From Phycisphaerae bacterium (lineage in GTDB: Bacteria; Planctomycetota; Phycisphaerae; UBA1845), in NCBI GenBank assembly GCA_029260135.1, contig JAJDDV010000146.1, positions 33,303 through 97,302 on the forward strand: a DNA stretch of 64,000 nt. Direction: 5' to 3'. The notes beneath the pieces are model-generated. The model worked only from the letters and a program-made list of their open reading frames with translations. It made no database searches and was not told the origin of the DNA. The translations under genes and the position numbers were made by a program. Shown one piece after another: positions 6,417 to 26,763 of the stretch (the first letter of the stretch is position 1; every line of letters starts with the position of its first letter).

Positions 6417-7439
6417 CTACGTCTGGTCGACACCGAGCTGAGCGAGGTGCTCGACGGCACAGGGGATGACCTGTTCGATGGCGTCGTGCAATCCGCCGTC
6501 GACGATGGCGCCGGCGGCTTGCGAATGCCCACCGCCATTAAACCGGGCCGCCAGTTCGAGCACCGTGACGCCTCCGTTCCCGCGAAAGTTGATTCGGATC
6601 TTCCCGCGATTGCCTTCCGTAAACAGCATAGCGAGGCGCACGCCGTCAAGCGAACGGGGAACCGTAATCTGATCATCAATGTCGGCGGCGGTGCAGCCGG
6701 CACCGTGGATGTCGTCGTATCCAGCGAAACTGTAGGCAATGGCACCGTCTGCTGCCGTTGTCGTGTTGGCGTAGATGACGCGGAGGAGGTCGAACTCGCT
6801 CTGTCGCTGGCTGCGATAGATTCGCGCCCCGAGCGTCGCGACGTCGGCGCCACACGCGACGAGATCGGCGGCGGCCGCCAAGGCGTTCGCATTGGTCGTC
6901 GGTAGCGAAAAACCGAGCGTGTCCGTAATGATGCCGGCGTAGAGAAGAGACGCCGTGGGCGGATCGATCGGACGCTGTGCCGCAACCAGAACGTGGTAGA
7001 GTAGTTCACAGCTGCTGCCGGCCTGATCGACAACCCAGTTGACGCTGCCGAAGCGGGTGTTGGTCTCGTGGTGATCGATATTGATGATCGGCCGGCCGGC
7101 CGACCAATCGGTCTGCTTCAAGTCCGGACCGACGTTGCAGCGAGGTTTCTTGGCCGTGTCGAGAACGATGAAGCCGTCGGCGGCGGCGAAATCCACCGGA
7201 CTGGCGATCCGCACCTCCGCAAGATCAAAGAGAAACGCGAGCCTCTTCGAGAGCGACCCGTCCGGTAGGGCGGCGGTCGGCCGACAGTCGTCCGTGCGCA
7301 GCGCGCGCGCGACGGCGAACATGCTGCCCAACGCATCGGCGTCCGGGACGACGTGCGATATGGCAATCGGCGCACGAAGTCCTCGCAGCCCCTCGATGAC
7401 CTCCGAGGGAACCGCGAGCGTCACTGGCTCTTCATCCAA
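6417..7439 (-). CDS. DHH/DHHA1 phosphoesterase (NrnA-like oligoribonuclease / pAp phosphatase)
   Basis: Motifs HVVPDADALGS, DTAK, INIDHH, GIITDT and the C-terminal GGGH. Its start overlaps the sat stop by 19 nt. Confidence 0.8.
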   Translation of the reverse strand: MDEEPVTLAVPSEVIEGLRGLRAPIAISHVVPDADALGSMFAVARALRTDDCRPTAALPDGSLSKRLAFLFDLAEVRIASPVDFAAADGFIVLDTAKKPRCNVGPDLKQTDWSAGRPIINIDHHETNTRFGSVNWVVDQAGSSCELLYHVLVAAQRPIDPPTASLLYAGIITDTLGFSLPTTNANALAAAADLVACGADVATLGARIYRSQRQSEFDLLRVIYANTTTAADGAIAYSFAGYDDIHGAGCTAADIDDQITVPRSLDGVRLAMLFTEGNRGKIRINFRGNGGVTVLELAARFNGGGHSQAAGAIVDGGLHDAIEQVIPCAVEHLAQLGVDQT

Positions 7440-8569
7440 TCGATCAGGATGTCCGCGATCTCAGGACGCGTGAACTCGCTCGGTGGACGTTCTCCCTTGG
7501 AGAGCATCTCACGCACCTTCGTGCCGGAAAGGAAGATCTGGTCGCCCTCGATTTTGGGGAATGTCTTGCCGCTGACCATGCCACCTGCAATTTTAGACCA
7601 GGCCGCGTGCTCGAAGTTCAGCGTTTGGATCTCCAGGGCACCATCGTCGAGCGTGTCAAAGATCTCTTGTGCGTCGTACGTGCCGTAATACTTACCGACA
7701 CCGGCGTGATCGCGCCCGATGATGATGTGGCTGCAGCCATAGTTCTGCCGGAGGATCGCGTGGAGGATGGCCTCCCGCGGGCCCGCATAGCGCATCGCCG
7801 CCGGCATGATCGTCAGCATCGTGCGGTCCGGGTGGTAGTACTTCTCCAGCAAGACCTCGTAGCACGTCATCCGTACGTCCGGTGGGATGTCGCCGTCTTT
7901 GGTGGCCCCCATGAGCGGATGGACGAGGAGTCCGTCGGTGATCTCCTGCGCGCACTTCGTCAGATACTCATGCGCGCGATGGATCGGATTTCGAGTCTGG
8001 AAGGCCGCAATCGTCGTCCAACCGCGCTTCTCGAACGCCGCGCGCGTCTGCACAGGCGTGAGACGGTGATCCGCAAACATCGGATCGTGACGTACGGCGA
8101 CCGCATCGATCGTTCCCGCCAGGCAAGTATCACCCTCTTCCATCACGATCTTGACGCCCGGATGCGCCGTGTCATCCGTACCAAATGCTTTGGTGGCCGC
8201 CAGCTTCTTGTTCTGCTGGAATTTCTCGGTCACGTTCAGATAACCGAGCAGGCGCCCGGCGTCATCGTGAAGCGAAACCCGGTCGCCCGCGTTCACTTTG
8301 TCGGCCGTGGCATCGTCGACGGCACAGGTGATCGGGATAGGCCAGACGTCGCCGTTGGTCAGCGTCATGTTGTTACAGACGCTCTCGTGGTCCGCTTGGC
8401 ACATGAAACCCTCCAAGGGGCTCATGGCGCCGATCGAGATCATCTCGAAATCGCACTGCTGCTGGGCCGAGAGTGTGATCTTAACACCGCCGAAAGAGGA
8501 GTCTTCGCTTGCTCCGGTCCGATCGACCAGCGTTCCGCCGTGGGGTTGAATCAGTTTCCTGTGGGGCAT
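7421..8569 (-). CDS. sat: Sulfate adenylyltransferase (ATP sulfurylase)
   Basis: 382 aa with QTRNPIHRAHEYL and GRDHAGVG signature motifs and a PUA-like N-terminal domain. Confidence 0.92.
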   Translation of the reverse strand: MPHRKLIQPHGGTLVDRTGASEDSSFGGVKITLSAQQQCDFEMISIGAMSPLEGFMCQADHESVCNNMTLTNGDVWPIPITCAVDDATADKVNAGDRVSLHDDAGRLLGYLNVTEKFQQNKKLAATKAFGTDDTAHPGVKIVMEEGDTCLAGTIDAVAVRHDPMFADHRLTPVQTRAAFEKRGWTTIAAFQTRNPIHRAHEYLTKCAQEITDGLLVHPLMGATKDGDIPPDVRMTCYEVLLEKYYHPDRTMLTIMPAAMRYAGPREAILHAILRQNYGCSHIIIGRDHAGVGKYYGTYDAQEIFDTLDDGALEIQTLNFEHAAWSKIAGGMVSGKTFPKIEGDQIFLSGTKVREMLSKGERPPSEFTRPEIADILIDWMKSQ

Positions 8570-9165: not shown

Positions 9166-11349
9166 TTACCTTTCTTCTGCCCGGCCTTTGTGGGCGATTT
9201 CATGGCGACAATCGCTGATGAACCGCTCGAGTGACAGGTTGCCGAGCGTGCGCCCGTCACGGTCGTTGACGTTTAACGTCTCGTTTTCGGCTTCCTTCTC
9301 GCCGACGACGACGATGTAGTTCACCTTGCCGGCCCGGAGACGGTGCTTCTTCGGACCGATCTTCTCATCACTGAGATCCAGTTCCGCTCGCAGCCCAGCA
9401 GCCTTGAGTGCTTCGAATACGCGCCGTCCGTACGCCACGCTCTTGTCGCTGACGGTCGCAACAGCAACCTGCACCGGCGAGAGCCACAGCGGAAACGCGC
9501 CGGCAAAATGCTCGATCAAAATGCCGACGAACCGTTCCATACTCCCAAAAGGAGCCCGGTGGATCATGATCGGGCGGTGCGGGGCGTTGTCGGCCCCAAT
9601 GTACGAAAGATCGAACCGTTCCGGCAGGTTGTAGTCGGCCTGGACCGTGCCGAGTTGCCACGTGCGACCGATGCAATCGCGTACGACAAAGTCGATCTTC
9701 GGCCCGTAGAACGCCGCCTCGCCCTGCTCCACCGAGTAATCGACACCACTTTCCTGCGCGGCGGATTGTACCGCCACTTCGGCTTTCGCCCAGTTCTCCG
9801 CGGATCCGACCCACTTCTCACTCTTCTCATCGCGCAGGCCGACGCGGACGCGATAATCAGTCAAGCCCAGCGTCGCGAGCACGCGCCGTGTGAGATCAAC
9901 CGTGGCCATCAGCTCCGCCTGGAGTTGGTCGTTCGTGCAGAAAAGGTGCGCATCGTCGGTGGTAAACCCGCGAACACGCGTCATACCGCTGATCTCGCCG
10001 CTCTGCTCGAAGCGATAGACCGTACCATACTCAGCCAGGCGAACCGGAAGATCGCGATAACTTCGCGGCCTCGACGCGTAGATCTGAATGTGGTGCGGAC
10101 AGTTCATCGGCCGCAGGAGATAGCCCGGTTCCCGCGCCAGCGCCGCGTACAGTCTCTCAATCACGGCGTCCAGCGAAAGATTCTCGCCGAGCCCCTCGAT
10201 CGCGCCCCAAGTCGACTGCAAGGCGTCAGCCATGGCGCCCACCGCCTCTGCGGAGCCCGCGCCCCCGGCTTCCCCGGCGCCCCGAATGCGCTGAGCAAGC
10301 TGCAGCGTCGCCTGGATGGCCTTCCCACGCTCCGACTCGAACATGGCCGGATATTGCGACTCTTCGTAATACGGATAGTGACCGCTGGTTCGATACAACC
10401 CGAGCTGGCCGATGTGCGGCGACATCACCATGTCGTAATTGAGCTTCTTCATCTCCTGGGTGAGATAGTCTTGAAGCTCCATACGAATAATCGTGCCCTT
10501 GGGTTGCCAGAGCACCAATCCGCTTCCCACTTGATCGCTGATCGTGAACAGCTCGAGGTCCTTGCCGATGACGCGGTGGTCGCGCTTCTTGGCCTCTTCC
10601 AACTGCACGAGATACGCGTCGAGAGACGCCTTCTTGAAGAACGCCGTGCCATACACGCGCTGGAGCGGTTGATCGTTGACATCGCCGCGATAGAACGACC
10701 GACTGACCTGGCGGATTTTGAACGCCTTGACCAGCTTCGTTCGCGGAATGTGCGGCCCGCGACAAAGGTCCTCGAAATTCGTCCCGGGGCAATCTCCGGT
10801 GACGTAGAAGCTCAGCGAATCGCCGTCCGCGCGCTCGGCATTCTCGATCTTGTACCGGCTTCCCTCGTCGCGCAGCTTGGCCATGCCTCCGTCGCGCGGC
10901 AACTCATACCGCTGGAACGACCGGTCCTCTTTGATGATCCTCGCCATTTCCGATTCGATCCGCGGAAAATCCTCCGGCGTGATCGACTGGGGCAGGTCAA
11001 TGTCGTAATAGAACCCGTCTTCAAGCGGTGGCCCGTAGACGAGTTGGGTTTCCGGAAAGAGCGTGCAGATCGCCTCGGCCATGATGTGCGCCGCGCTGTG
11101 ACGAAGCACCTCGAGGCTGTCAGCGTTTTCGTCCGTCGCGGTGAGAAGGGCGAGTTCACAGTCGCCCGGAAGGGGCTGCGAAAGGTCGACGATCCGGCTG
11201 TCGCCGTTGCTCGTGACACGAGCGGCGACCGCTTTCCTGGCCAATCCGGGACCGATCATTCCGGCGATGTCCGCCGACGTCGCTCCGTCTTGCGCTTCCA
11301 ATACGTTGCCGTCTGGCAGTCTGACTTTCAGCAGGCCATCTCCCATCAT
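9166..11349 (-). CDS. thrS: Threonyl-tRNA synthetase
   Basis: TGS domain (LKVRLPDG..), editing-domain HSAAH motif, class II core (..RPMNCPHH.., ..FTTDDAHLF..) and an anticodon-binding C-terminus. Start chosen at the MM pair (11349). The ORF track's 14-aa extension is unsupported. Confidence 0.95.
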   Translation of the reverse strand: MMGDGLLKVRLPDGNVLEAQDGATSADIAGMIGPGLARKAVAARVTSNGDSRIVDLSQPLPGDCELALLTATDENADSLEVLRHSAAHIMAEAICTLFPETQLVYGPPLEDGFYYDIDLPQSITPEDFPRIESEMARIIKEDRSFQRYELPRDGGMAKLRDEGSRYKIENAERADGDSLSFYVTGDCPGTNFEDLCRGPHIPRTKLVKAFKIRQVSRSFYRGDVNDQPLQRVYGTAFFKKASLDAYLVQLEEAKKRDHRVIGKDLELFTISDQVGSGLVLWQPKGTIIRMELQDYLTQEMKKLNYDMVMSPHIGQLGLYRTSGHYPYYEESQYPAMFESERGKAIQATLQLAQRIRGAGEAGGAGSAEAVGAMADALQSTWGAIEGLGENLSLDAVIERLYAALAREPGYLLRPMNCPHHIQIYASRPRSYRDLPVRLAEYGTVYRFEQSGEISGMTRVRGFTTDDAHLFCTNDQLQAELMATVDLTRRVLATLGLTDYRVRVGLRDEKSEKWVGSAENWAKAEVAVQSAAQESGVDYSVEQGEAAFYGPKIDFVVRDCIGRTWQLGTVQADYNLPERFDLSYIGADNAPHRPIMIHRAPFGSMERFVGILIEHFAGAFPLWLSPVQVAVATVSDKSVAYGRRVFEALKAAGLRAELDLSDEKIGPKKHRLRAGKVNYIVVVGEKEAENETLNVNDRDGRTLGNLSLERFISDCRHEIAHKGRAEER

Positions 11350-11724
11350 GGCCGGGTTCGTCGGCCCGAAGACAAGCGACGGGCCCAACAAAAAACGGAC
11401 CGGCGGTTTACGACGTACGCAACGCTTCCGCCCAGGCCGACCAAGACCACGGTGACACCAGGGCTACTCATCGTGCGTGCGTCATCAACCGCTGATCCGC
11501 TCTACTAAACCATCCCGATCTACGGGGAACCGTCAGCTCACGTCCCCGGATGCAGGATCAAAACCACAATTCAATATATCACATCGGTGGATTCGGTCAA
11601 GGAGTTTCGCTCAGCCGCCGCGCGGCCTCACCGACCCCAAACAGCCTTGAACCGCTCCCAGGGCGGGTTTCGCCCTACGCGCCGCCTTCCGGCGTGTCCA
11701 GGCCCGGCCGCCCGCACCTCTCCA

Positions 11725-11910
11725 TCACGCGGCCACGAACATTCCGGTCAGCAGGGTTTCCACGATCCCCGTCAGAATCGCGGTCATGAAGCCCGCAATC
11801 ACGGAAATGAACTCGGTCGACATCAGGTATCCGGTAATGTCCAGCATCGTTTCGGTCACTCCTTCGAGCGTCAAACCTGAGCCGCCCCGCGCGGCCATGG
11901 GCTCGCCCAT
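11725..11910 (-). CDS. Possible small hydrophobic protein (61 aa, or 40 aa from internal ATG 11847)
   Basis: Only coding-looking ORF in the roughly 1.1-kb gap 11350-12459. The C-terminal 40 aa (MLDITGYLMSTEFISVIAGFMTAILTGIVETLLTGMFVAA) is one TM-like helix, preceded by GAAGGAG 11 nt upstream of ATG 11847. I recognise no homology. Confidence 0.3.
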   Translation of the reverse strand: MGEPMAARGGSGLTLEGVTETMLDITGYLMSTEFISVIAGFMTAILTGIVETLLTGMFVAA

Positions 11911-12459: not shown

Positions 12460-13761
12460 ATGATGACAAGACCCATCCTGATCGGCTTGGCGCTTTGCGC
12501 CGCATGTTGCGTCTCGGCCCAGGCCCAGACTGTATTGTACGTTGACGCAAACGCTGACCTGACACCGCACAACGGCTCGGACTGGTGTCATGCCTATCTG
12601 ACGCTGACCGACGCCCTTGCGGCAGCCGGGGCCAACACCACCATTCGCGTCGCGAATGGAACCTACCGTCCGGGCACGTCGAGGAATTCAACCTTCGGCC
12701 TCATCGACAGCGTGACGATCTCCGGCGGCCACGCCGGATGCAATGACGGCGGCGATGAACGGAACATCGCACGAAATGAGACGATCCTCAGCGGTGACCT
12801 GGCCGGAGATGATCAAACCGGCGGCGACAACAGTGAGAACAGCTACCACGTCGTGACCGGAAGCGGTCGCGACGCAACCGCGGTGCTTGACGGCTTCACC
12901 ATCACCGGCGGAAACGCCGACGGATCCCCGGACCACGGCGGCGGCCTCTATATCGATGGAGGAAGCCCGACGATTGTGAACTGCACGTTCCGCCGAAACT
13001 CGGCTGGCTATGGCGGTGCCGTCATGGTGTCTGCTGGAAACGATCCAACGTTCACCAACTGTCGATTCGTTGGAAACTCGGCCCCACTCGGCGGAGCGGT
13101 TTACGCCGACAGCGGCAGCGCGGTGTTTACAAACTGCGTCTTCGCCGGAAACTGGGCCGAGGGGTCCGGCGGTGCTATTCTTGCCGCCGTCTTCGATGGG
13201 ACGTTGGTGAACTGTACATTTGCCAACAACACGGGACCTAGCGGCGGCGGCGCTGTGCATCTGCTTTTTGGCAACAACCTGACCTTCGCCAACTGTATTC
13301 TGTGGGGCAACACGCCCAACCAGATCGAAGAGTTCGGGAGCAGTGCGGTTGTCGCCGTAGATCGCACCTGCATCCAGGACGGCTGGACCGGGACCGGCAA
13401 CATCACCACCAGTCCACAATTCGCTCGAGACCCCGGTCCGGGTTCCGACGGCGAGTGGGGCACGCCGGACGACGACTACGGAGATCTGACCCTGCAAGGC
13501 GGATCTCCAGCGATCGATGCGGGAGATTCCAGCGCGATCCTCGCAGGTGTCTACGTCGATCTGGCCCTCAACGTGCGGGTCCTCGACGATCCGAACACGA
13601 CGGATACCGGTGTCGGCATCGGCGTGCCGCCGCTCACGGTCGATATGGGCGCGTACGAACACCCGATCTTCAGCCGGAATCTGGGCGATGTCGACGGTGA
13701 CGGTGACGTCGACCTCGAGGACTTCGCGTTCTTCTTCGAAGAGTTCATCGGCCCCCGATGA
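12460..13761 (+). CDS. Secreted right-handed parallel beta-helix repeat protein with C-terminal dockerin/EF-hand-like motif
   Basis: Signal peptide MMTRPILIGLALCAACCVSAQAQ. Repeated ..GGA(V/I)....GS..F.NC.F.GN.A units follow. The C-terminus reads GDVDGDGDVDLEDFAFFFEEF. Confidence 0.8.
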   Translation: MMTRPILIGLALCAACCVSAQAQTVLYVDANADLTPHNGSDWCHAYLTLTDALAAAGANTTIRVANGTYRPGTSRNSTFGLIDSVTISGGHAGCNDGGDERNIARNETILSGDLAGDDQTGGDNSENSYHVVTGSGRDATAVLDGFTITGGNADGSPDHGGGLYIDGGSPTIVNCTFRRNSAGYGGAVMVSAGNDPTFTNCRFVGNSAPLGGAVYADSGSAVFTNCVFAGNWAEGSGGAILAAVFDGTLVNCTFANNTGPSGGGAVHLLFGNNLTFANCILWGNTPNQIEEFGSSAVVAVDRTCIQDGWTGTGNITTSPQFARDPGPGSDGEWGTPDDDYGDLTLQGGSPAIDAGDSSAILAGVYVDLALNVRVLDDPNTTDTGVGIGVPPLTVDMGAYEHPIFSRNLGDVDGDGDVDLEDFAFFFEEFIGPR

Positions 13762-13825: not shown

Positions 13826-14482
13826 CTACGCGCCCAGCACCGCCGTCGCCCAGGTGGACGGATCGACATACCAGTTGAGATCGTCGCCGACGGTCAAATA
13901 CTGCTGGCCATGATCTCCGTCTTCGAGGATGTAGTAGAACCCGATCCGCGCGTGCTCGGCCGGGTCAAACCCCGAGAGACACTCCGCGGGCACATGCGCT
14001 TCCAGAAAGTAACCGTCGGCGGACACGTCCGACGCAACGCTGATCCGTTCCACGGATACAGCCGGTGCGTGCTCCCGCGCACGTTTGATCGCATTCACCC
14101 CAGCCACAGGCTTGTCACCCTTGCGCCCGCCGCCCGTCGGCAGAAAGAAGAACTGCTGACAGAAGCGCGTCGCCCTCTTGTTCGACCTCGCATCGCGCAT
14201 ATCCGTGCAGAGGCGGAGGTTGTCCCCGGCCCAGAACGTCTTGGCGTTGCACCGAAGCGGGCGCCGCTTATCCGTGACGCGGCAGGCAATCCACAATCCC
14301 CGCTCATTCCAACAGCACCACACGTCGGCGAAGTCACCCATGCCGTCGATCTCGCCGAACTTCGGCAGCAGATCCGCGTCCGTCCAGTCGGAGGGGTCTC
14401 CATCCATCACCGGCGCAGCCTCGCGGTAGTGGAGCCGAAACTCCACGTCGAACAGGAATCGGTTGGGAATTAGAGTGGTCAT
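13826..14482 (-). CDS. CBM9/DOMON-like domain protein without signal peptide, translationally coupled to the giant UvrA-like gene
   Basis: Lies in ORF 13826..14578. ATG 14482 overlaps the UvrA-like stop (ATGA at 14479-14482). The sequence (..MDGDPSDWTDADLLP...ADVWCCWNERGLWIACRVTD.. / ..GYFLEAHVPAECL...ARIGFYYILEDGD) follows the CBM family 9-like pattern. Confidence 0.6.
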   Translation of the reverse strand: MTTLIPNRFLFDVEFRLHYREAAPVMDGDPSDWTDADLLPKFGEIDGMGDFADVWCCWNERGLWIACRVTDKRRPLRCNAKTFWAGDNLRLCTDMRDARSNKRATRFCQQFFFLPTGGGRKGDKPVAGVNAIKRAREHAPAVSVERISVASDVSADGYFLEAHVPAECLSGFDPAEHARIGFYYILEDGDHGQQYLTVGDDLNWYVDPSTWATAVLGA

Positions 14483-17400
14483 GCCGATTGCAGTGCCTCC
14501 TCCCGGTCGATCGTACGGCACGCGCGCCACGCCGCCGACATCTGCTTGGAGTCGTTTTGCCCCAGCGTGTGGAGCCAAAAGACAATCCGGTCATACGCCT
14601 CTTGTGGTTTGATCTCGACGTCCTCGCCGAGTCGATCAACTTGCGTCGGTGTCAGTGCGGCGGTAGGGGAGCGAAGCTCCACGCGCAATCCCCGCCCGAT
14701 GTTCGTGACGATCTTCGCCGTGTAGCGATCCTCTCCCGGCCCCAAGAGCTGAACCGCGGTGCGCGCTTCCCACCGAACCTCGAGATCGGGCTGGATCGCT
14801 TTGAACCGTCCGATCAACGTCATCAGCGTCGCTGGCTTCCACCGAATGACGTGGCGGCGCGAGATCGACTTCTGCGACAGATGCCACGCCTGACCGTCCG
14901 CCTTCCAGGGCTGTGCGGCGTCGGGGTCGGCCTTGATCTGCGACATTTGCTGCGCATATGCCGTGGCGGCCTCCTTGAGCAGCGCTCGGCCCTTGGCTTT
15001 TGTCAGGTCTTTGAAGTCGCGCAGATGGAGGCGCAATTCCTCCCACCCGTCCGTGAGTGTTCGGTGTCGCACCCGATCCCACTGTCCGTAGATGGGGAGG
15101 TCCTTTCTCTCATCCAGCGTCTTGATGGAGAGTCTCTGACGCAATCTCTCCGGATCGAAGGTGTTCTCAGGAACTCGAATCGCCACGTCCAACAGGTCCT
15201 TCGCTCCGGTCAAAATATGGCAAAACCACATTTTCGCGCCCTTCGCCTTGAGCTCGATACGCGTGCGGTGGTTCCAATCCGGCGGGGCGAATTCGCCCAC
15301 CGAAGTTGCGGTATCCACAAACCAGGTGAGAACTTCGGCGTCCCACTTGACCGGTTCGCCCTTGCTGTCGAGATGATCGACCGTGTGCCACGCCCGCCCG
15401 TCCCGCTCCCACGGCATCCGGACGGATTCATCGCTGCCGGCGGGGTGGGGGAGCGGTGCGTGTTGTTCCTTGCTCGATCGTTTGGCTGACAAGGAGGCGA
15501 TCGCAGTCTCCTTTGATCCGGCAGCGCGTTTCTTTCCCGGTACATGAACGATTCGATCTTCGACCGGTCCAGCATCGAGCGCCGGCTTGAGCACACGACC
15601 GGTGTGCGAGCCCTTCGATCGCACGACCTCCTCCGGCGTTCCTTCAAACACGATCCTTCCGCCGATTTCGCCCGCCTCAGGACCGAGGTCGATCATCCAG
15701 TCGGCCGTCTTGATGACGTCGAGATTGTGCTCGATGCAGATGCACGTGTTCCCGCCGTCGACCAGTCGGTGCAAAACACCCAGGAGCTTCCTGAGATCAT
15801 CAAAGTGCAGTCCGGTCGTCGGTTCGTCGAGAATGTAGAGCGTCTTGCCTGTAGACGGCCGGCCGAGTTCCGCAGCCAGTTTGATCCGCTGCGCCTCGCC
15901 GCCCGAAAGGGTCGGCGCCGACTGACCGAGCTGGACATACCCGAGCCCGACGTCATCGAGCGTTTCGAGCATCCGCCGAATCTTGGGCACGTTCTCGAAC
16001 TGCTCGAGCGCCTCCGACACACGCATGTTCAACACGTCGACGATGCTGTGTCCACGATAACAGGCCTCGAGCGTCTCGGGAACATATCGCGCCCCCCGGC
16101 AACTCTCACATTCCACCCACACATCCGGAAGGAAGTGCATCTCAATACACTGCTGCCCCATCCCCTGACACGCCTCACAACGACCGCCCGGTCGATTGAA
16201 GCTGAACCGGTTCGCGGTGTACCCGCGCATCCGGCTAACGGGGAGTCGCGCAAACAAGTTGCGAATCACGTCGAAAACACCGGTATACGTCGCCGGGTTG
16301 CTCGTCGGGCTCACGCCGATCGGTGACTGGTCGACGTTGACGACCTTGTCGATGTTCTCGATTCCGCTGATGCGCTCGTGTCCGCCGGGCACCAACCGCG
16401 CCCGGTGAATCCTCGCCGCCAGCGCGTTGTGCAGAATGGAAGAAACCAGCGTGCTCTTCCCGCTTCCTGACACGCCGGTGACGCACGTGAATCGACCCAG
16501 CGGAAAGGCAACGTCAATCTCCTTGAGGTTGTTCTCCCTGGCACCGTGGATCGTAAGGTGCGCCGTGTCGGCATCCACCGATCGCCGGTTCGACGGCACG
16601 GGGATCGCCTTCTTCGATCCCAGATACTGACCGGTCAACGACGCTCGCTTCGAACGAAGCCGCTTCGGCGTTGCCGCAGCCGTGATCTCCCCGCCGAAAG
16701 TTCCCGCGCCGGGACCGAAGTCCAGCACGTGATCCGCCGCATCGATCACGTCCCGGTCGTGCTCCACAAGCAGCAATGTGTTTCCCAGATCGCGCAACCG
16801 CTTGAGCGCTCGAATCAACCGATCGTTGTCTCGCGGGTGAAGGCCGATTGTCGGTTCATCAAGTACGTACAGTACGCCGGTCAGTCCCGTACCAATCTGA
16901 GAGGCAAGCTGTATCCGCTGCGATTCTCCGCCGGAAAGCGTCGAAGCCGTCCGGTGCAGCGTCACATAGTCCAGCCCGACGTCGACAAGAAAACGCAATC
17001 GCGACTCGATCTCGTGCAGCAACTCACCGGCGATCTTGCGTTCCCGCGCAGGCAGCTTCAGCTTCTCAAACCAGGCAACCGCCTTGCCCAGCGGCCACAG
17101 GCAGAGCTCGTGGATCGTGACGTCCGCCAGGCGCACCGCCGCGGATTCGGCACGAAGACGTCCGCCCGCACAAGTGTCGCACGGGACATCGGTCACGAGG
17201 TCTTCCAGGCGCTTGCGAAACAGCCAACTCGAACGCGTCGCCCGGTTGATCGCCGGGAAATACCCGCGCCACTTGAACCGGATTCCGGTGAGGTCTTCGC
17301 CGGCGAACCTTCGAGCCTTGCCCTTGGTGCGCTGCGGCTTCGCCTCGATCCATTCATCGTCACACCCGTGCAGAAACGCCAGACGCTGCACTTCACTGAG

Positions 17401-19782
17401 GTCGTTCCACGGTGTTCCGAGGTCGAAACCGATGTGCCTCGCGAGCGCGTTCGCCAGCGTGTGCAGTTGGGATCCCGGTTCGAGCATCCCCCATCCCGAC
17501 ACGGCACCGTCCCCGATCGATCGCGTCGGATGGACGATGATGGCCGCAGGGCTGGCACCCTGCTGGACCCCGAGACCCTCACACGTCTTACACCACCCCA
17601 TGCGACTATTGAACGAGAAGTGGTGCGGTGTTAGCTCGTCATAGCTCCGGCTGCACTTGTCGCACGAGTGATGTTGCGAGAATCGAAACTCGTTGCGTTT
17701 CTTCCGTCTCTTGCTGCTCCTCTTCGTCGAGGTACCTCCGTCATCCTCGACCGGCTGTACAAGGATGACGCCGTTGCCGATCGAAAGCGACTGCTCGACA
17801 CTGTCCGCGATGCGCGACGCGTTCTTCTTGCCCACCACCACGCGGTCGACCACCAGCTCCACGCGGTGTCGCCGCTTGCCGTCGATGTCGATCGGCTCAT
17901 CCAACGAGAAAACCTCACCGTCGACGCGCACCCGTGCATAGCCGTTGGCCCGTTCCCGCTGAAACAGGCGTTCGTACGACTCCTGCCCCGTCGGCTCGAT
18001 CGGCGCCATGAGCAAAATCCGCCGCCCCTCGCCCAGTCCGAGCACCTTCTCGACGATCTCTTCGCTCGACTGCGTCCCGATCTCCACCTTGCACTTGGGG
18101 CAATAAGGCCTGCCGATCCTCGCCCATAGAATGCGAAGATAGTCGTAGACTTCCGTGATCGTGCCCACCGTCGATCGCGGAGATTTGCTCGTGGTCTTCT
18201 GCTCGATACAGATCGCCGGCGACAACCCATGGACATGATCGACCTTCGGCGGCTGCAGCCGACTCAAAAACTGACGCGCATACGCGCTGAGCGACTCGAC
18301 ATACCGGCGCTGACCTTCCGTGTAAACCGTGTCGATCGCCAGACTGCTCTTGCCGCTTCCGCTGGGGCCGCTGCAAACCGTCATTCGACCTCGCGGAAAC
18401 TCGACGGTGATGTCTTTGAGGTTGTGCTGCTTCGCCCCGACCACCGTAATCGCATCGCGTTTGGATTTGGAACCACCATTGCGGCCAACGCTCGATGTCT
18501 TCCCCCGCCCGTTCTTCCCGTTTGTCGCCGCTTTGGTCTTCTTGCCGCCGCCGAGTACCTCCCGCAACACGGCCCCCGTGTGCGACCGCTTCGATCGTGC
18601 GACATGCTCCGGCGTGCCCTGCGAAACCACGCGCCCGCCGTCGGCGCCCCCTTCGGGACCCAGATCGATCACCCAGTCCGCCGTCTTGACCACGTCGAGA
18701 TTGTGCTCGATCACCATCACGCTGTTGCCGGCGTCGACGAACCGGTGCAACACCGCCAGCAGCTTCTTGATGTCGTCGAAGTGTAGCCCCGTCGTCGGCT
18801 CATCCAGCAGATAGAGCGTCCGCCCGGTCGATTTCTTGACCAGTTCGCGCGCCAGCTTGATCCGCTGCGCTTCGCCGCCCGAGAGTGTGGTCGACGACTG
18901 CCCGAGCTTGAGATAATCCAGGCCGACCTCGTGTAGCCTGCGGAGCATCGCGGCGACCTTCGGAACGTTCTCGAAGTGCTCGAGCGCGTCCTGCACGTCC
19001 ATGCCCAGCACATCGGCGATGTTCTTACCCTTGAAGAGAATCTGCAGTGTCTCTCGATTGAACCGCCGCCCCGAACAGACCGGGCACGTTACCCAGACGT
19101 CCGCGAGGAAGTCCATCTCCATCTTGTTTTGGCCGTTACCCTCACACGCCTCGCAACGACCGCCGCCCGCCTTGCCCGTGTGGACGTTGAAGCTGAACCG
19201 GCCCGGCTTATACCCGCGGACCTTCGCGTCCGGGAGCTTTGCGTACAGCGCGCGAATCTCGTCGAACACCTTGATATACGTAGCCGGGTTGGATCGCGGT
19301 GTTCGCCCGATCGGCGACTGATCGATGTCGATGACCTTGTCGAGATGCTCGACCCCGTCGATGCGATCGTGAACGCCGGGGTCGACCTTGACCGCGCCGT
19401 TCAGATCGCGGTTAAGCGCCTCTCCGAGGATATCGTTGACCAGCGAACTCTTCCCCGATCCCGACACGCCCGTCACGCAAACAAACCGCCCCAGCGGAAT
19501 CTCGACGTCCAGATTCCGAAGATTATTCTGCCGCGCCCCAACCACCGTCAGCCACGCGTGCTCGGCATCGTGTGCCGAACCCTCCTCCCCTGAGCCGCGG
19601 GCTTCAGCCCGCGCGGACTCCGCACGCTGTGTAGCCTTGCTCGATTTGCGTGCGGACGCGGTTTTTTGTGGGACCGACTTTCCAGTCGGTCGACCCGCGC
19701 GCGCAGAGTCTCCCCGTACGGCGGGCTCCGCCCGCCGCTTCGCCTTCTTGCGCGTTGGTGTCGTCTTACGCTTCTTGCCCAT
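14479..19782 (-). CDS. uvrA: Giant UvrA-family protein (1767 aa): basic N-tail, UvrA NBD-II module, basic linker, complete UvrA (NBD-I + NBD-II), 370-aa unknown C-terminal region
   Basis: Three Walker A sites (GVSGSGKSS, GPSGSGKSS, GVSGSGKST), three ABC signatures (LSGGEAQR, LSGGESQR, LSGGEAQR) and three Walker B sites (LLDEPTTGLH, VLDEPTIGLH, ILDEPTTGLH). UvrA zinc modules are also present (CPKC.., CDKC..CKTC, CEACxGxG..CPVC / CESC). Confidence 0.93.
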   Translation of the reverse strand: MGKKRKTTPTRKKAKRRAEPAVRGDSARAGRPTGKSVPQKTASARKSSKATQRAESARAEARGSGEEGSAHDAEHAWLTVVGARQNNLRNLDVEIPLGRFVCVTGVSGSGKSSLVNDILGEALNRDLNGAVKVDPGVHDRIDGVEHLDKVIDIDQSPIGRTPRSNPATYIKVFDEIRALYAKLPDAKVRGYKPGRFSFNVHTGKAGGGRCEACEGNGQNKMEMDFLADVWVTCPVCSGRRFNRETLQILFKGKNIADVLGMDVQDALEHFENVPKVAAMLRRLHEVGLDYLKLGQSSTTLSGGEAQRIKLARELVKKSTGRTLYLLDEPTTGLHFDDIKKLLAVLHRFVDAGNSVMVIEHNLDVVKTADWVIDLGPEGGADGGRVVSQGTPEHVARSKRSHTGAVLREVLGGGKKTKAATNGKNGRGKTSSVGRNGGSKSKRDAITVVGAKQHNLKDITVEFPRGRMTVCSGPSGSGKSSLAIDTVYTEGQRRYVESLSAYARQFLSRLQPPKVDHVHGLSPAICIEQKTTSKSPRSTVGTITEVYDYLRILWARIGRPYCPKCKVEIGTQSSEEIVEKVLGLGEGRRILLMAPIEPTGQESYERLFQRERANGYARVRVDGEVFSLDEPIDIDGKRRHRVELVVDRVVVGKKNASRIADSVEQSLSIGNGVILVQPVEDDGGTSTKRSSKRRKKRNEFRFSQHHSCDKCSRSYDELTPHHFSFNSRMGWCKTCEGLGVQQGASPAAIIVHPTRSIGDGAVSGWGMLEPGSQLHTLANALARHIGFDLGTPWNDLSEVQRLAFLHGCDDEWIEAKPQRTKGKARRFAGEDLTGIRFKWRGYFPAINRATRSSWLFRKRLEDLVTDVPCDTCAGGRLRAESAAVRLADVTIHELCLWPLGKAVAWFEKLKLPARERKIAGELLHEIESRLRFLVDVGLDYVTLHRTASTLSGGESQRIQLASQIGTGLTGVLYVLDEPTIGLHPRDNDRLIRALKRLRDLGNTLLLVEHDRDVIDAADHVLDFGPGAGTFGGEITAAATPKRLRSKRASLTGQYLGSKKAIPVPSNRRSVDADTAHLTIHGARENNLKEIDVAFPLGRFTCVTGVSGSGKSTLVSSILHNALAARIHRARLVPGGHERISGIENIDKVVNVDQSPIGVSPTSNPATYTGVFDVIRNLFARLPVSRMRGYTANRFSFNRPGGRCEACQGMGQQCIEMHFLPDVWVECESCRGARYVPETLEACYRGHSIVDVLNMRVSEALEQFENVPKIRRMLETLDDVGLGYVQLGQSAPTLSGGEAQRIKLAAELGRPSTGKTLYILDEPTTGLHFDDLRKLLGVLHRLVDGGNTCICIEHNLDVIKTADWMIDLGPEAGEIGGRIVFEGTPEEVVRSKGSHTGRVLKPALDAGPVEDRIVHVPGKKRAAGSKETAIASLSAKRSSKEQHAPLPHPAGSDESVRMPWERDGRAWHTVDHLDSKGEPVKWDAEVLTWFVDTATSVGEFAPPDWNHRTRIELKAKGAKMWFCHILTGAKDLLDVAIRVPENTFDPERLRQRLSIKTLDERKDLPIYGQWDRVRHRTLTDGWEELRLHLRDFKDLTKAKGRALLKEAATAYAQQMSQIKADPDAAQPWKADGQAWHLSQKSISRRHVIRWKPATLMTLIGRFKAIQPDLEVRWEARTAVQLLGPGEDRYTAKIVTNIGRGLRVELRSPTAALTPTQVDRLGEDVEIKPQEAYDRIVFWLHTLGQNDSKQMSAAWRACRTIDREEALQSA
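19648..19782. repeat. Direct repeat copy 1 (135 bp), the 5' end of the giant UvrA-like gene
   Basis: About 93% identical (10 mismatches by eye) to 20059..20193. The offset is exactly 411 bp. It encodes MGKKRKTTPTRKKAKRRAEPAVRGDSARAGRPTGKSVPQKTASAR. Confidence 0.9.
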
Positions 19783-19810
19783 TCCGTGTCCGCCGCAAAC
19801 TCAAGTTCCC

Positions 19811-19827
19811 TCGGGTGGCATGGGCAA
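19811..19827. repeat. Left arm of a perfect 17-bp inverted repeat (TCGGGTGGCATGGGCAA)
   Basis: Exact reverse complement of 20186..20202. It contains a plus-strand ATG (19820) and lies 28 nt upstream of the giant gene's start codon on the opposite strand. Confidence 0.9.
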
Positions 19828-19917
19828 ACTCGTTTGCCCGTGTAGCCGCGAATCTCATCGCACGAACTCCGCAGCCTCGCAGGGTGCACTTCGCCCGCCC
19901 CTTGGACTGATCGTTCT

Positions 19918-20193
19918 TCACCAGCACAACTGCACCGTGCCCGCGAACTCGACAGACTTCGCCGCCAACTGTGCGATCCTCCGTTCGTAACGCTTGGGAA
20001 ACTGCTCGCGCAAATGTTCGAGCAACACCGTCGCAACACCGGCTCTTCTCCATTTCGCGCGTGCGGACGCCGACGTCTGTGGGACCGACTTTCCAGTCGG
20101 TCGACCCGCGCGCACGGAATCTCCCCGTACGGCGGACTCCGCCCGCCGCTTCACCTTCTTGCGCGTTGGTGTCGTCTTACGCTTCTTGCCCAT
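19918..20193 (-). CDS. Small ORF (91 aa from ATG 20193): duplicated UvrA-linker N-terminus plus a unique helical C-terminus; possibly a gene remnant
   Basis: The first roughly 45 aa (MGKKRKTTPTRKKVKRRAESAVRGDSVRAGRPTGKSVPQTSASAR) duplicate the giant gene's N-terminus. The unique part is AKWRRAGVATVLLEHLREQFPKRYERRIAQLAAKSVEFAGTVQLCW. Coding status is unknown. Confidence 0.3.
   Translation of the reverse strand: MGKKRKTTPTRKKVKRRAESAVRGDSVRAGRPTGKSVPQTSASARAKWRRAGVATVLLEHLREQFPKRYERRIAQLAAKSVEFAGTVQLCW
20059..20193. repeat. Direct repeat copy 2 (135 bp)
   Basis: See 19648..19782. Both copies contain the 8-bp-stem hairpin GACCGACT-TTCC-AGTCGGTC (19672-19691 and 20083-20102). Confidence 0.9.
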
Positions 20194-20202
20194 GCCACCC
20201 GA
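20186..20202. repeat. Right arm of the perfect 17-bp inverted repeat (TTGCCCATGCCACCCGA)
   Basis: Reverse complement of 19811..19827. It covers the ATG (20193) of the small minus-strand ORF and the 9 nt upstream of it. Confidence 0.9.
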
Positions 20203-20227
20203 TTCCGCCAATGCGTTGCGACTGTGT

Positions 20228-22147
20228 TCACTTCTTCTCTCGTCTTACTACCCGGCGTTTCTTGGGAACCTCGATCTCTTCGTCTCCTCTCAGATACCGC
20301 CCCGTGATCGACTTCTTCGACGCACGAATCGTCGCCAGATCCCCTTGCGCCGTCACCTTCCCGCCACGAACGCCGGGCCCCGGGCCGAAATCGACGATCT
20401 CATCCGCCGTGCGCATCGTCTGCTCATCGTGCTCGACGACAATCACCGTGTTGCCCAGATCGCGAAGCCTCAGCAGCGAATCTAGTAACCGCTCGTTGTC
20501 CCGCGCGTGCAGTCCGATGCTCGGCTCATCGAGAATGTACAGCACGCCCACTAGCCCCGCACCGATCTGACTCGCCAACCGAATCCGCTGCGACTCCCCA
20601 CCCGAAAGCGTCGGGGCTGAACGGTCCAGCGTCAGATACCCAAGCCCCACGTCGAGAAGAAACCCCAGCCGCCCGCGAATCTCTTTGACCACATCCTCCG
20701 CGATGATCCGCTCCGTCGGTCCGAGTTCGAGCCCTTCGATGAAGTCGACCGCCTGCTCGATCGAAAGCGTCGACAGCTCGCACAGGTTGATCCCGCAGAC
20801 CTGCACCGCCAGCGCCTGCGCATTAAGCCTCGCGCCGCCGCAGTCCGGGCAGATGGCCTTCCGCATGAACTTCTCGTAATACGCCCGAACGAAATTCGAC
20901 TTGGCCTTGCGATGCTTCTCACGCAAATCGGCAATCACACCCGCAAACGTATCGCCATGTCGATACACTCCGCCCGACCAACGCCAGTCGTACTGAATGT
21001 GCCTTTCGCCCAGCCCATACAGCAGCGCGTGCTTAGCCTCTTCGGGCAGCTTCCCCCACGGTGTCTTCAGGTCGAACCCGACGTGCTTCGCGACGCCGCG
21101 GAAGATATGCCTTCGCCACCGCCCGATCCGCGTACGCATCGGCGCGACCGCCAGCTTGAGGAACGTTTTGCGCGGGTTCGGCACCATCAGGTCGGGATCG
21201 AAATCGTACGTCGTTCCCAGCCCGTCACAGGTCAAACACATTCCGGCCGGCGAATTGAAGCTGAAGAGCTGCGGCGACGGCGACTCGAAACTTACATCGC
21301 ATTTCGCACAGCCATAGTGCGACGACAGCAGCAGATCGCCCGCGCGCCCACCCTTCGTCTTCTTCCCCGCACCCTTCTTCTTACCCTTCCCCTTCGAGCC
21401 GACGGAGCGCTTCGCAACACCGTCGCCGTCCACGACTTGTACAATCAGCGTACCCTCACCCAGCTTCAGCGCCGCTTCGACCGCCTCCGCCAAACGAGCG
21501 CGAATCTTCGACGAGATCACCAACCGATCCACGACGATCTCGATGTCGTGGCGAACATGCCTCGCCAGCGCCGGAGCCTCGGACAGCGCAGCGACCTCAC
21601 CGTCGATCCGCGCCCGCGCATACCCCTGGCGAATCATGTCGTCGAACAGATCGCGATACTCACCCTTCTGCCCGCGAACCACAGGCGCGAGCACGAGAAT
21701 CTTCGCATCTTCCTCGAGTTCGAGAATCCGCGCGATGATTTGCTCCCGTGTCTGCGCGCGAATCGGCTCACCGCATCCCGTGCAGTGCTGGCGCCCCACG
21801 CGCGCAAAGAGAACGCGCAAGTAATCGTGAATCTGCGTGATCGTCCCGACCGTACTGCGCGGATTCCATCCGCTCGTCTTCTGCTGGATCGCGATCGCCG
21901 GGCTGAGCCCCGTGATCTGGTCGACATCCGGCTTGGCCAGCTGTCCCAGAAACTGTCGCGCATACGAGCTGAGCGATTCCAGATAACGCCGCTGCCCCTC
22001 AGCAAACAGCGTGTCAAATGCGAAGCTGCTCTTCCCGCTTCCCGAAACGCCGGTCAGGCAAATCAGCTTCCCACGAGGCAGCTTCAGCGAGACCGACTGC
22101 AGGTTGTGCTCGCGCGCACCCTTGACCGTAATCGTTCGTGGTTCCAT
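20228..22147 (-). CDS. uvrA: UvrA N-terminal half only (NBD-I with UvrB-binding-like and zinc-finger insertions); ends in the NBD-I/NBD-II linker
   Basis: 639 aa with Walker A GVSGSGKSS, FAEGQRRYLESLSSYARQF, Zn modules (CTGC, CAKC..CLTCDGLG, CPDCGG), signature LSGGESQR and Walker B ILDEPSIGLH. It ends ..ITGRYLRGDEEIEVPKKRRVVRREKK*. In canonical UvrA that motif immediately precedes NBD-II. Confidence 0.93.
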   Translation of the reverse strand: MEPRTITVKGAREHNLQSVSLKLPRGKLICLTGVSGSGKSSFAFDTLFAEGQRRYLESLSSYARQFLGQLAKPDVDQITGLSPAIAIQQKTSGWNPRSTVGTITQIHDYLRVLFARVGRQHCTGCGEPIRAQTREQIIARILELEEDAKILVLAPVVRGQKGEYRDLFDDMIRQGYARARIDGEVAALSEAPALARHVRHDIEIVVDRLVISSKIRARLAEAVEAALKLGEGTLIVQVVDGDGVAKRSVGSKGKGKKKGAGKKTKGGRAGDLLLSSHYGCAKCDVSFESPSPQLFSFNSPAGMCLTCDGLGTTYDFDPDLMVPNPRKTFLKLAVAPMRTRIGRWRRHIFRGVAKHVGFDLKTPWGKLPEEAKHALLYGLGERHIQYDWRWSGGVYRHGDTFAGVIADLREKHRKAKSNFVRAYYEKFMRKAICPDCGGARLNAQALAVQVCGINLCELSTLSIEQAVDFIEGLELGPTERIIAEDVVKEIRGRLGFLLDVGLGYLTLDRSAPTLSGGESQRIRLASQIGAGLVGVLYILDEPSIGLHARDNERLLDSLLRLRDLGNTVIVVEHDEQTMRTADEIVDFGPGPGVRGGKVTAQGDLATIRASKKSITGRYLRGDEEIEVPKKRRVVRREKK

Positions 22148-26705: not shown

Positions 26706-26763
26706 CCACGGGCGACTCCTCATTCCAGTTTCGTAGGGCGGGTTCCACCCGCCGCCGATGAGC

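Follow-up and report, generated by a model that had tools for sequence, protein, structure and literature searches.

A probable REP-associated rearrangement scar in the spacer of a split uvrA from Phycisphaerae

Introduction

In a 64,000-nt stretch of contig JAJDDV010000146.1 (assembly GCA_029260135.1, Phycisphaerae bacterium, lineage UBA1845), referred to below as the window, a perfect 17-bp inverted repeat lies just upstream of a gene for a 1767-aa UvrA-like protein (the giant gene). An initial interpretation made from the letters of the DNA (the sequence-only reading) had noted that the repeat spans two start codons and offers competing hairpins. It had proposed a translational RNA switch, an invertible segment, or the ends of a small non-autonomous element. 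The question raised by this locus is what the repeat is and how it came to stand there.

Taken as a whole, the evidence presented below makes it probable that the repeat is the scar of a rearrangement associated with a repetitive extragenic palindrome (REP) in the spacer of a split uvrA gene, and not an RNA switch or a segment that flips. Inverted doublets of REPs are termed REPINs.

Results

The arms of the inverted repeat and their repeat family

The two arms, TCGGGTGGCATGGGCAA (19811-19827) and TTGCCCATGCCACCCGA (20186-20202), are complementary at 17 of 17 positions and separated by 358 nt, as originally described. With up to three mismatches allowed, the 17-mer has these two matches alone in the window (0.18 expected from shuffles). 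The reported open reading frames (ORFs) were likewise confirmed: 91 aa on the minus strand (ATG at 20193, end at 19918), 56 aa on the plus strand (19820-19990) and 1767 aa (start at 19782). Also confirmed were the local hairpin at 19822-19839 and the ability of UUGCCCAU to pair with AUGGGCAA (19775-19782) in the giant gene. The description was nevertheless incomplete, as the membership of the arms in a repeat family, a direct repeat, and the setting in a split uvrA change its meaning.

Comparison with other genomes identified both arms, at the level of sequence, as copies of a REP, one intact and one broken. The unit, approximately 30 nt long, opens with GGGTGG as its 5′ tag and continues with the hairpin CATGGGCAA-loop-TTGCCCGTG, within the family frame GGGTGGCAT-hairpin-GTG (alias GGGTGGCATGGGCAA-hairpin). 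The hairpin of the complete copy, CATGGGCAAA-CTCG-TTTGCCCGTG, is stronger on the tag-first strand (−8.9 kcal/mol) than on the opposite strand (−6.9 kcal/mol) because of G·T wobbles, and this asymmetry fits recognition as a single strand. The 30-mer GGGTGGCATGGGCAAACTCGTTTGCCCGTG of the window is shared with two copies (11834-11863 and 12960-12989) in the orthologous locus L002 (Phycisphaerae UBA1845), whose flanks do not align with those of the window.

The abundance of the family was determined in 185,579 species-representative genomes using the exact pattern GGGTGGCATGGGCAAN{6,8}TTGCCCGTG, all counts being lower bounds. At least 117 exact-match loci were found in at least 26 Phycisphaerae/Planctomycetota genomes, with about 0.01 expected by chance according to our own arithmetic. 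Single metagenome-assembled genomes (MAGs) contained at least 22, 18, 13, and 10 loci. Among the matches listed, all taxonomically named genomes were Phycisphaerae/Planctomycetota MAGs, and none of the 117 loci was the uvrA locus. REP elements were also observed at loci unrelated to uvrA.

The scanned loci contained at least 210 REP copies, in which the 15-nt core and the 9-nt 3′ part were conserved at 94-100%, and the tag GGGTGG followed by CAT at 94-99% per position. Stem positions left unconstrained by the pattern covaried (208 copies: AC/GT 70, GC/GC 81, TG/CA 5, CG/CG 3). By these counts in other genomes the arms are copies of a generic REP, which the sequence-only reading had itself listed as evidence against its proposals.

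Convergent doublets were found at least 64 times, mostly combining a 32-nt REP (GGGCAAGC..GCTTGCCC) with a 30-nt REP (GGGCAAAC..GTTTGCCC) at a modal spacing of about 16 nt. The window arms likewise converge and combine the two types, GGGCAA in the truncated arm being followed by G as it is in the 32-nt type; in orientation and types the pair therefore matches a normal doublet. It is not a canonical REPIN, given the 358 nt between the copies and the truncation of one of them. Within the family, an exact core seldom occurs without a hairpin (1 of 151), so the truncation marks a specific event rather than ordinary decay.

In L002, four REPs are arranged as inverted pairs around a 188-aa gene in the uvrA gap. 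Its product matched NCBIfam NF047646 with 99.5 bits (cutoff 80), passed Pfam Y1_Tnp (28.8 bits), and contains an HVH motif and YIHNNP; these profile matches designate it a REP-associated tyrosine transposase (RAYT, Y1/HUH). Tagged hairpins were observed at 20 of 80 metagenomic loci with RAYT relatives, and where the relatives were at least 60% identical, all four evaluable loci had a tagged hairpin both upstream (+) and downstream (−). At L128 the GGGTGGCAT...GTG frame surrounds a completely different stem. The recurrent pairing of gene and repeat indicates that the family is multiplied by RAYT in other genomes.

Further arrangements were seen beside RAYT-like genes. In L085 (3-2921), a 973-aa DinG-like helicase ORF contains, in frame, a segment that resembles RAYT and bears the HVH motif; here too, a REP/RAYT unit has invaded a repair-type gene. 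Several copies of a sister palindrome, GGTGGCACGGGCTTCCAGCCCGTG, surround the segment and have the same GGTGGCA tag and a different stem; the locus was considered as a second RAYT-REP unit (REPtron) of the window's family and rejected, as it represents a sister family. In L136 (786-3214) and L137 (942-1676), REP cores of alternating orientation stand beside a RAYT relative at regular spacings of about 270 and 94 nt. With 10 core copies in L136, the pattern suggests a REP-bounded unit repeated in tandem.

The split tandem uvrA

The 639-aa ORF upstream of the repeat (the N-half) corresponds to the N-terminal two thirds of UvrA: the first ATP-binding module together with the insertions for UvrB interaction and DNA binding. 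It ends in ...GRYLRGDEEIEVPKKRRVVRREKK*, and ...GRYLRGDEEIEVPKKRR is the end of the first ATP-binding module. The spacer between it and the giant gene is therefore a gap inside a split uvrA. The giant protein contains, in order, a 75-aa basic tail, the second ATP-binding module of UvrA (from WLTVVGARQNNL...), a second complete UvrA (aa 442-1402), and an extension of about 365 aa. Its basic tail is orthologous to MAGKKRK...KAKRRA of L002. No alternative in-frame ATG, GTG, or TTG precedes the conserved WLTVVGAR, and on sequence grounds the ATG at 19782 is taken as the authentic start.

More than 100 relatives of the N-half, annotated as Phycisphaerae/Planctomycetes and 68-80% identical, are likewise 620-695 aa long. 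The split is recognized as old by these relatives, whose distribution marks it as ancient and shared across Phycisphaerae. A recent local disruption of uvrA by a repeat-bearing insert was rejected in view of the same split in these relatives, and an intron, ribozyme, or other structured RNA in the gap was rejected after an Rfam search (E up to 10) gave chance-level matches only. A limited literature search found no description of a tandem double uvrA split into an N-half (about 640 aa) and a giant gene (about 1700 aa).

The direct repeat and the chimeric reading frame

A 138-bp direct repeat, missed in the sequence-only reading, occupies the spacer and the start of the giant gene (copies A and B, Table 1). 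The copies are 92% identical and 411 bp apart from start to start; with a 3-nt indel the similarity extends to about 20045, beyond which homology fades. Both 'ATGGGCAA' start codons are thereby explained, since they are the ends of the two copies.

The 91-aa ORF shares about 46 residues with the start of the giant protein, with three substitutions, and continues into a different sequence. In an exhaustive phmmer search this remainder matched the DUF6869-like proteins P0123 (62% identity, E 8e-8), P0124, and P0125. Positions 92-134 of a profile built from these three and an ORF of L033 aligned to RRAGVATVLLEHL...CW with 52 bits. The match to the DUF6869-like family is not full-length; in place of the N-terminal two thirds stands a copy of the uvrA tail. 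In L122, the gene for P0123 lies between those for the N-half and the giant protein, 25 nt ahead of the start of the latter, and in L123 the P0124 gene comes after the N-half gene; by these positions, the small ORF is the counterpart of a resident spacer gene.

The alignments thus characterize the 91-aa ORF as a chimera, in which a duplicate of the giant 5′ end continues in frame into the final third of a DUF6869-like gene resident in the spacer. At full length it had no homolog but itself in the protein search, and it is probably a pseudogene or an orphan. A RAYT remnant was also considered for its C-terminus and rejected (BLASTP E 0.57) in favor of the DUF6869-like fragment. The 56-aa plus-strand ORF begins at the ATG present in every REP copy, had no family match in a domain profile search, and is very probably spurious.

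Read along the minus strand, the order is N-half stop, 25-nt spacer, truncated REP, copy A, DUF6869-like fragment, 75-nt spacer, reversed complete REP, 28-nt leader, and giant gene (Table 1). A DUF6869-like gene of full length also occurs away from uvrA in L033 (5998-6438), from a Tepidisphaeraceae MAG; 51 nt beyond it stands the same REP (6490-6519), with the same ...CCACCCGA flank as the REP of the window.

Table 1. Features of the uvrA gap in the window and contents of the corresponding gaps in orthologous loci
Feature	Position	Strand	Description
uvrA N-half gene	20228-22147	-	639 aa; NCBIfam UvrA NF001503, profile positions 4-611 of 943; Pfam UvrA_inter, UvrA_DNA-bind
Spacer, N-half stop to truncated REP	20203-20227	-	25 nt, read directly
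Truncated REP	20186-20202	-	reads TCGGGTGGCATGGGCAA: 5′ tag and 5′ stem arm; loop and 3′ arm missing
Chimeric 91-aa ORF	19918-20193	-	about 48 aa of giant-tail copy and 43 aa of DUF6869-like C-terminus
Direct repeat, copy A	20059-20196	-	duplicates giant start codon and basic-tail coding; overlaps truncated REP via ATGGGCAA(G)
GTAC-tagged palindrome, copy A	20127-20147	+	same as copy B palindrome
DUF6869-like 3′ fragment	19921-20049	-	RRAGVATVLLEHLREQFPKRYERRIAQLAAKSVEFAGTVQLCW, fused in frame to copy A
Spacer, DUF6869 stop to complete REP			75 nt
Complete REP	19811-19842	+	30-nt type with TC flank, TC-GGGTGG-CATGGGCAAACTCGTTTGCCCGTG; first 17 nt form one arm; hairpin of 11 pairs
Leader, REP to giant start	19783-19810	-	28 nt, read directly
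Direct repeat, copy B	19648-19785	-	the giant gene's own start and basic N-terminal tail
GTAC-GGCGGGC-TCC-GCCCGCC palindrome, copy B	19716-19736	+	translated KRRAEPAVR; −13.1 kcal/mol, z −2.9
Giant gene	14479-19782	-	1767 aa; ORF and profile matches
L001 gap	10151-10744		nucleotidyltransferase-like ORF, 197 aa
L122 gap	7032-7748 and 8001-8276		238-aa homolog of the L001 ORF and 91-aa DUF6869-like gene
L123 gap	540-983		DUF6869-like gene
L002 gap			three ORFs, one a transposase
L003 gap			unrelated ORFs
L126 gap			unrelated ORFs
L125			no gap; uvrA in three pieces, 643 + 376 + 1306 aa
L124			giant gene not adjacent to N-half

Origin of the arrangement

At the left junction, a 9-nt identity, ATGGGCAAG, exists between the REP stem arm and the start of the giant gene. 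The REP would have been the site at which microhomology-mediated illegitimate recombination, or template switching, produced the arrangement. In a one-event route, a double template switch at a stalled fork would have moved replication from the REP stem to the giant start, copied about 150 nt, and re-entered the DUF6869 gene. In a two-event route, a 411-bp tandem duplication over the 3′ part of the DUF6869 gene, the REP, the leader, and the tail would have been followed by a deletion between two ATGGGCAAG sequences. The duplicate of the giant 5′ end would measure about 140-150 nt, with some divergence afterwards (92% identity), and the 8% divergence between the copies implies that the event was not recent.

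A simple 411-bp tandem duplication alone leaves the REP-to-tail junction unexplained and was retained only as the first of the two steps. Campbell-type integration of a small circle with tail homology was rejected, there being no evidence for it and the interior being locus-native. The competing pairings of the sequence-only reading would follow from REP self-complementarity and the duplication, with no purpose-built device behind them. In a transcript of the region, if one is made, the start of the chimeric ORF would be hidden in the 17-bp duplex and the giant start would stay free.

Several points weigh against a REP-associated scar. The best UvrA match is 80% identical and there is no close relative, for which reason the order and number of events are not reconstructible and neither route is preferred. 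The right junction, between the tail copy and the DUF6869 fragment, has no clear microhomology. The 64-kb window holds just one complete and one truncated REP copy, a tblastn search of it found no RAYT gene, and the family lacks the classical GTAG tag. The two REPs may go back to a single REPIN, to two singlets, or to a lost RAYT gene that they flanked, and the chimeric ORF is intact and in frame, so it may yet have a function.

Alternative explanations

The proposals of the sequence-only reading mostly failed against these data, that of a small non-autonomous element coming nearest. An RNA switch, in which UUGCCCAU would alternate between the local hairpin, the giant start, and the upstream-ORF start and so couple translation of that ORF to initiation of the 1767-aa protein, is very unlikely. 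All three complementarities exist, and the REP lies 28 nt from the giant start in the window and 49 nt from it in L002. However, when the minus-strand RNA 20240-19740 was folded (minimum free energy −198.3 kcal/mol), the 17-bp duplex dominated with P 0.71-1.0, whereas the forced local hairpin (−192.3 kcal/mol) and the forced start-occluding helix (−192.0 kcal/mol) were 6.0 and 6.3 kcal/mol worse, with P ~0. The dominant duplex covers the AUG of the chimeric ORF, while the giant AUG is largely unpaired. The elements involved are the consensus of a repeat dispersed at non-uvrA loci, and the pairing partners are not conserved: seven of the eight orthologous spacers (L001, L003, L122, L123, L124, L125, and L126) lack the REP, and the giant start of L002, AUGGCGGG, is unable to pair with UUGCCCAU. 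The upstream ORF is a chimera without a full-length homolog, and there was no Rfam match. A phase-variation segment bounded by the 17-bp arms is extremely improbable, even though a perfect inverted repeat flanks 358 bp beside a gene start. The arms match the REP consensus; a Pfam search of 10 kb on either side yielded no invertase, integrase, or transposase, and tblastn no RAYT. The internal pieces keep their ancestral orientation, with the DUF6869 fragment and the tail copy oriented like their counterparts in relatives and in the giant gene, and a flip would give neither gene a promoter or an alternative coding end. From the idea of a small non-autonomous element, what survives is that the arms are copies of a RAYT-mobilized REP family; that the whole 392-bp block (19811-20202) is itself a transposon with 17-bp terminal inverted repeats (a miniature inverted-repeat transposable element) is highly improbable. 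Terminal inverted repeats are present, and both arms share a TC flank found in just 13 of 151 family members. The interior, however, recurs neither within the window nor across about 0.9 Mb of REP-bearing loci, and it is native to the locus: it consists of the copy of the giant 5′ end and a fragment of a gene that relatives carry at this position. The family's typical hairpin is absent from one terminus, and no convincing target-site duplication flanks the arms.

Two explanations that accept the arms as REPs deserve somewhat more weight. The REPs could be leftover flanks of a RAYT gene that once occupied the spacer and was removed by the rearrangement, which is unlikely. This is recommended by L002, whose uvrA spacer holds a RAYT gene and four REPs, one of them shortly before the giant start, and by the REP(+)...REP(−) flanking geometry typical of RAYT genes. 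Yet no RAYT remnant was found, either in the small ORF or by tblastn, the DNA between the arms is a fragment of the resident DUF6869-like gene rather than of a RAYT, and the sequences from REP to giant start in the window and L002 do not align. It is rather more doubtful that the REP hairpin or duplex was co-opted as a 3′-exonuclease barrier or partial terminator tuning the two uvrA pieces. REPs have been reported to be transcribed and to influence mRNA stability and termination (PMC3733652, PMC3479197), and a position between co-oriented uvrA pieces would be suitable, but the element is not conserved at this site in most relatives, and a scan of the region for sigma-70 promoters and intrinsic terminators revealed nothing relevant, and no terminator-like signal, on the sense strand. 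A rearrangement scar at a REP was retained as the preferred reading.

Gap content in orthologous loci

Eight orthologous uvrA loci were compared (L001, L002, L003, and L122-L126; Table 1). HD and HIT genes stand on one side in most of them, and basic tails were observed on both sides of the split in every genome compared. The comparison portrays the uvrA architecture as fluid and the gap content as very variable, with the split itself conserved. No REPs were present at the uvrA spacer of L124-L126, whose genomes are rich in REPs.

The gap was also seen to be home to semi-conserved small resident genes, nucleotidyltransferase-like and DUF6869-like (91-147 aa). The nucleotidyltransferase-like ORFs of L001 (197 aa) and L122 (238 aa) both end in LRDEAGI and gave a weak DUF6036 match. 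In L003, the second module of the first UvrA unit is seemingly missing. Directly after the N-half stop of L002, an 8-nt tandem repeat, CACCAAGA, occurs in at least three in-register copies (9924-9954). The 195-aa gap ORF of the same locus (11099-11686) begins with MTRKTRKKVGGSKAKWQRK and resembles the tail of its giant gene, MAGKKRKIAGGAKAKRRAK (13039-13100). A tail duplication parallel to that of the window could account for the likeness, as could low sequence complexity; at the DNA level no repeat was seen.

Downstream, the C-terminal extension of the giant protein (about 365 aa, aa 1402-1767; window 14479-15580) has no Pfam match and is conserved in L001 and L122. The 250-aa ORF that follows the giant gene (13826-14578) gave a weak CBM9-like match, and its counterparts in relatives overlap the giant stop codon.

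A second palindrome at the split junction

Copies A and B of the direct repeat each contain a GTAC-tagged palindrome (Table 1), which resembles a GTAG-tagged hairpin at the uvrA split junction in L001, L003, and L126. The latter (GTAG-GGCGGGC-TCC-GCCCGCC) had seven matches in 931 kb, five of them at the split junction. Besides the two sites of Table 1, the second palindrome occurs at 26733-26753 in the window, where a compensatory C-G to T-A change was noted, and at 9915-9935 in L001, 9994-10014 in L003, and 7970-7990 in L126. In L003 and L126, translation of the GTAG palindrome yields KRRAGSARR at the C-terminus of the N-half; the orientation in the window is opposite, and KRRAEPAVR results in the giant tail.

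The N-terminal tail of the giant protein (window 19560-19782, minus strand) is 75 aa long compared with 18-38 aa in relatives, and its DNA contains three or four GC-rich palindromes, e.g., GACCGACTGGAAAGTCGGTC and GCGGGCTGAAGCCCGC. The length of this palindrome-bearing tail suggests that it grew by palindrome insertions.

Discussion

The analysis removes a false lead, in that a striking inverted repeat with competing hairpins is read as the by-product of a mobile palindrome and a local duplication. It also provides a concrete case of a REP as the join point of a duplication creating a chimeric ORF, and it draws attention to a conserved yet structurally fluid tandem uvrA split in this lineage. 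A REP/RAYT family outside Proteobacteria with a non-GTAG tag (GGGTGGCA) should be useful for the annotation of MAGs and for studies of RAYT substrate recognition.

A broader interpretation would be that the uvrA split point is a long-lived landing and rearrangement site for REP/RAYT, whose activity, and not neutral decay, caused or maintains the fission. This is regarded as improbable. If it were true, REP palindromes would become the translated basic linker tails of both UvrA pieces, a RAYT gene could live in the uvrA gap, as in L002, and REP-mediated rearrangements would make new chimeric ORFs bearing a UvrA tail.

In terms of architecture, the locus can be compared with the tandem-duplicated UvrA of the chlamydial type (NCBIfam NF001885/PRK00635, about 1800 aa), which likewise consists of two head-to-tail UvrA units; both the N-half and the giant protein match this model. 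In contrast, the window encodes the first ATP-binding module of the first unit as a 639-aa protein of its own, the giant protein has the extra C-terminal extension of about 365 aa, and the score is far under the cutoff (958 vs. 3054 bits).

Nunvar 2010 is reportedly among the studies of REP/REPIN-RAYT systems. The anatomy of REPINs has been described (Bertels & Rainey 2011, PMC3116915, PMC3337134), and the present family shares with these systems a short palindrome, a conserved single-stranded tag, and a covarying stem (PMC3116915, PMC3337134; Messing 2012, PMC3479197). In relatives it likewise forms many dispersed copies per genome, mostly as inverted doublets with a short spacer, and flanks single Y1/HUH RAYT genes in L002 and the metagenomic relatives. 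Unlike classical REPs, the Phycisphaerae family carries the tag GGGTGG(CA) and not GTAG, its hosts are Phycisphaerae and not Proteobacteria, and the same core is kept at 94-100% in at least 26 species-level genomes, Phycisphaerales and Tepidisphaerales among them. In contrast to classical REPINs, the pair in the window is 358 nt apart rather than about 16 nt, and one copy is truncated. As seen in relatives, the family is a REP/REPIN-RAYT system by every defining feature except the GTAG tag.

In E. coli, microhomology-mediated template-switch duplications have been described, with REPs at some junctions (PMC1428787). As in the duplications and deletions of Slack et al. 2006 (PMC1428787), the novel junction lies here at a short G-rich direct microhomology (ATGGGCAAG), a REP stands at the junction with less than its full length used, and the product is a duplication. 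The cases differ in that the present one is deduced from a single evolved sequence with copies diverged by 8%, and the second junction has no clear microhomology.

REP families in Planctomycetes were already reported by Di Nocera et al. 2013 (PMC3733652), who also described REPs inside uvrA of Thioalkalivibrio, both uvrA genes of Opitutus terrae, and uvrB of Rickettsia conorii. The present locus resembles these intragenic REPs in the association of REP-type palindromes with uvrA in a bacterium of the PVC group and in the translation of palindromes, here the GTAC/GTAG hairpin read as KRRAEPAVR or KRRAGSARR in linker tails. It differs in that uvrA is split into separate ORFs with cargo genes between them, and in that the main REP family of the window lies between ORFs and not in frame. 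Relative to these known systems, the GGGTGG-tag family, its near-invariance across a whole class, and its part in joining the pieces of a chimeric ORF may be new.

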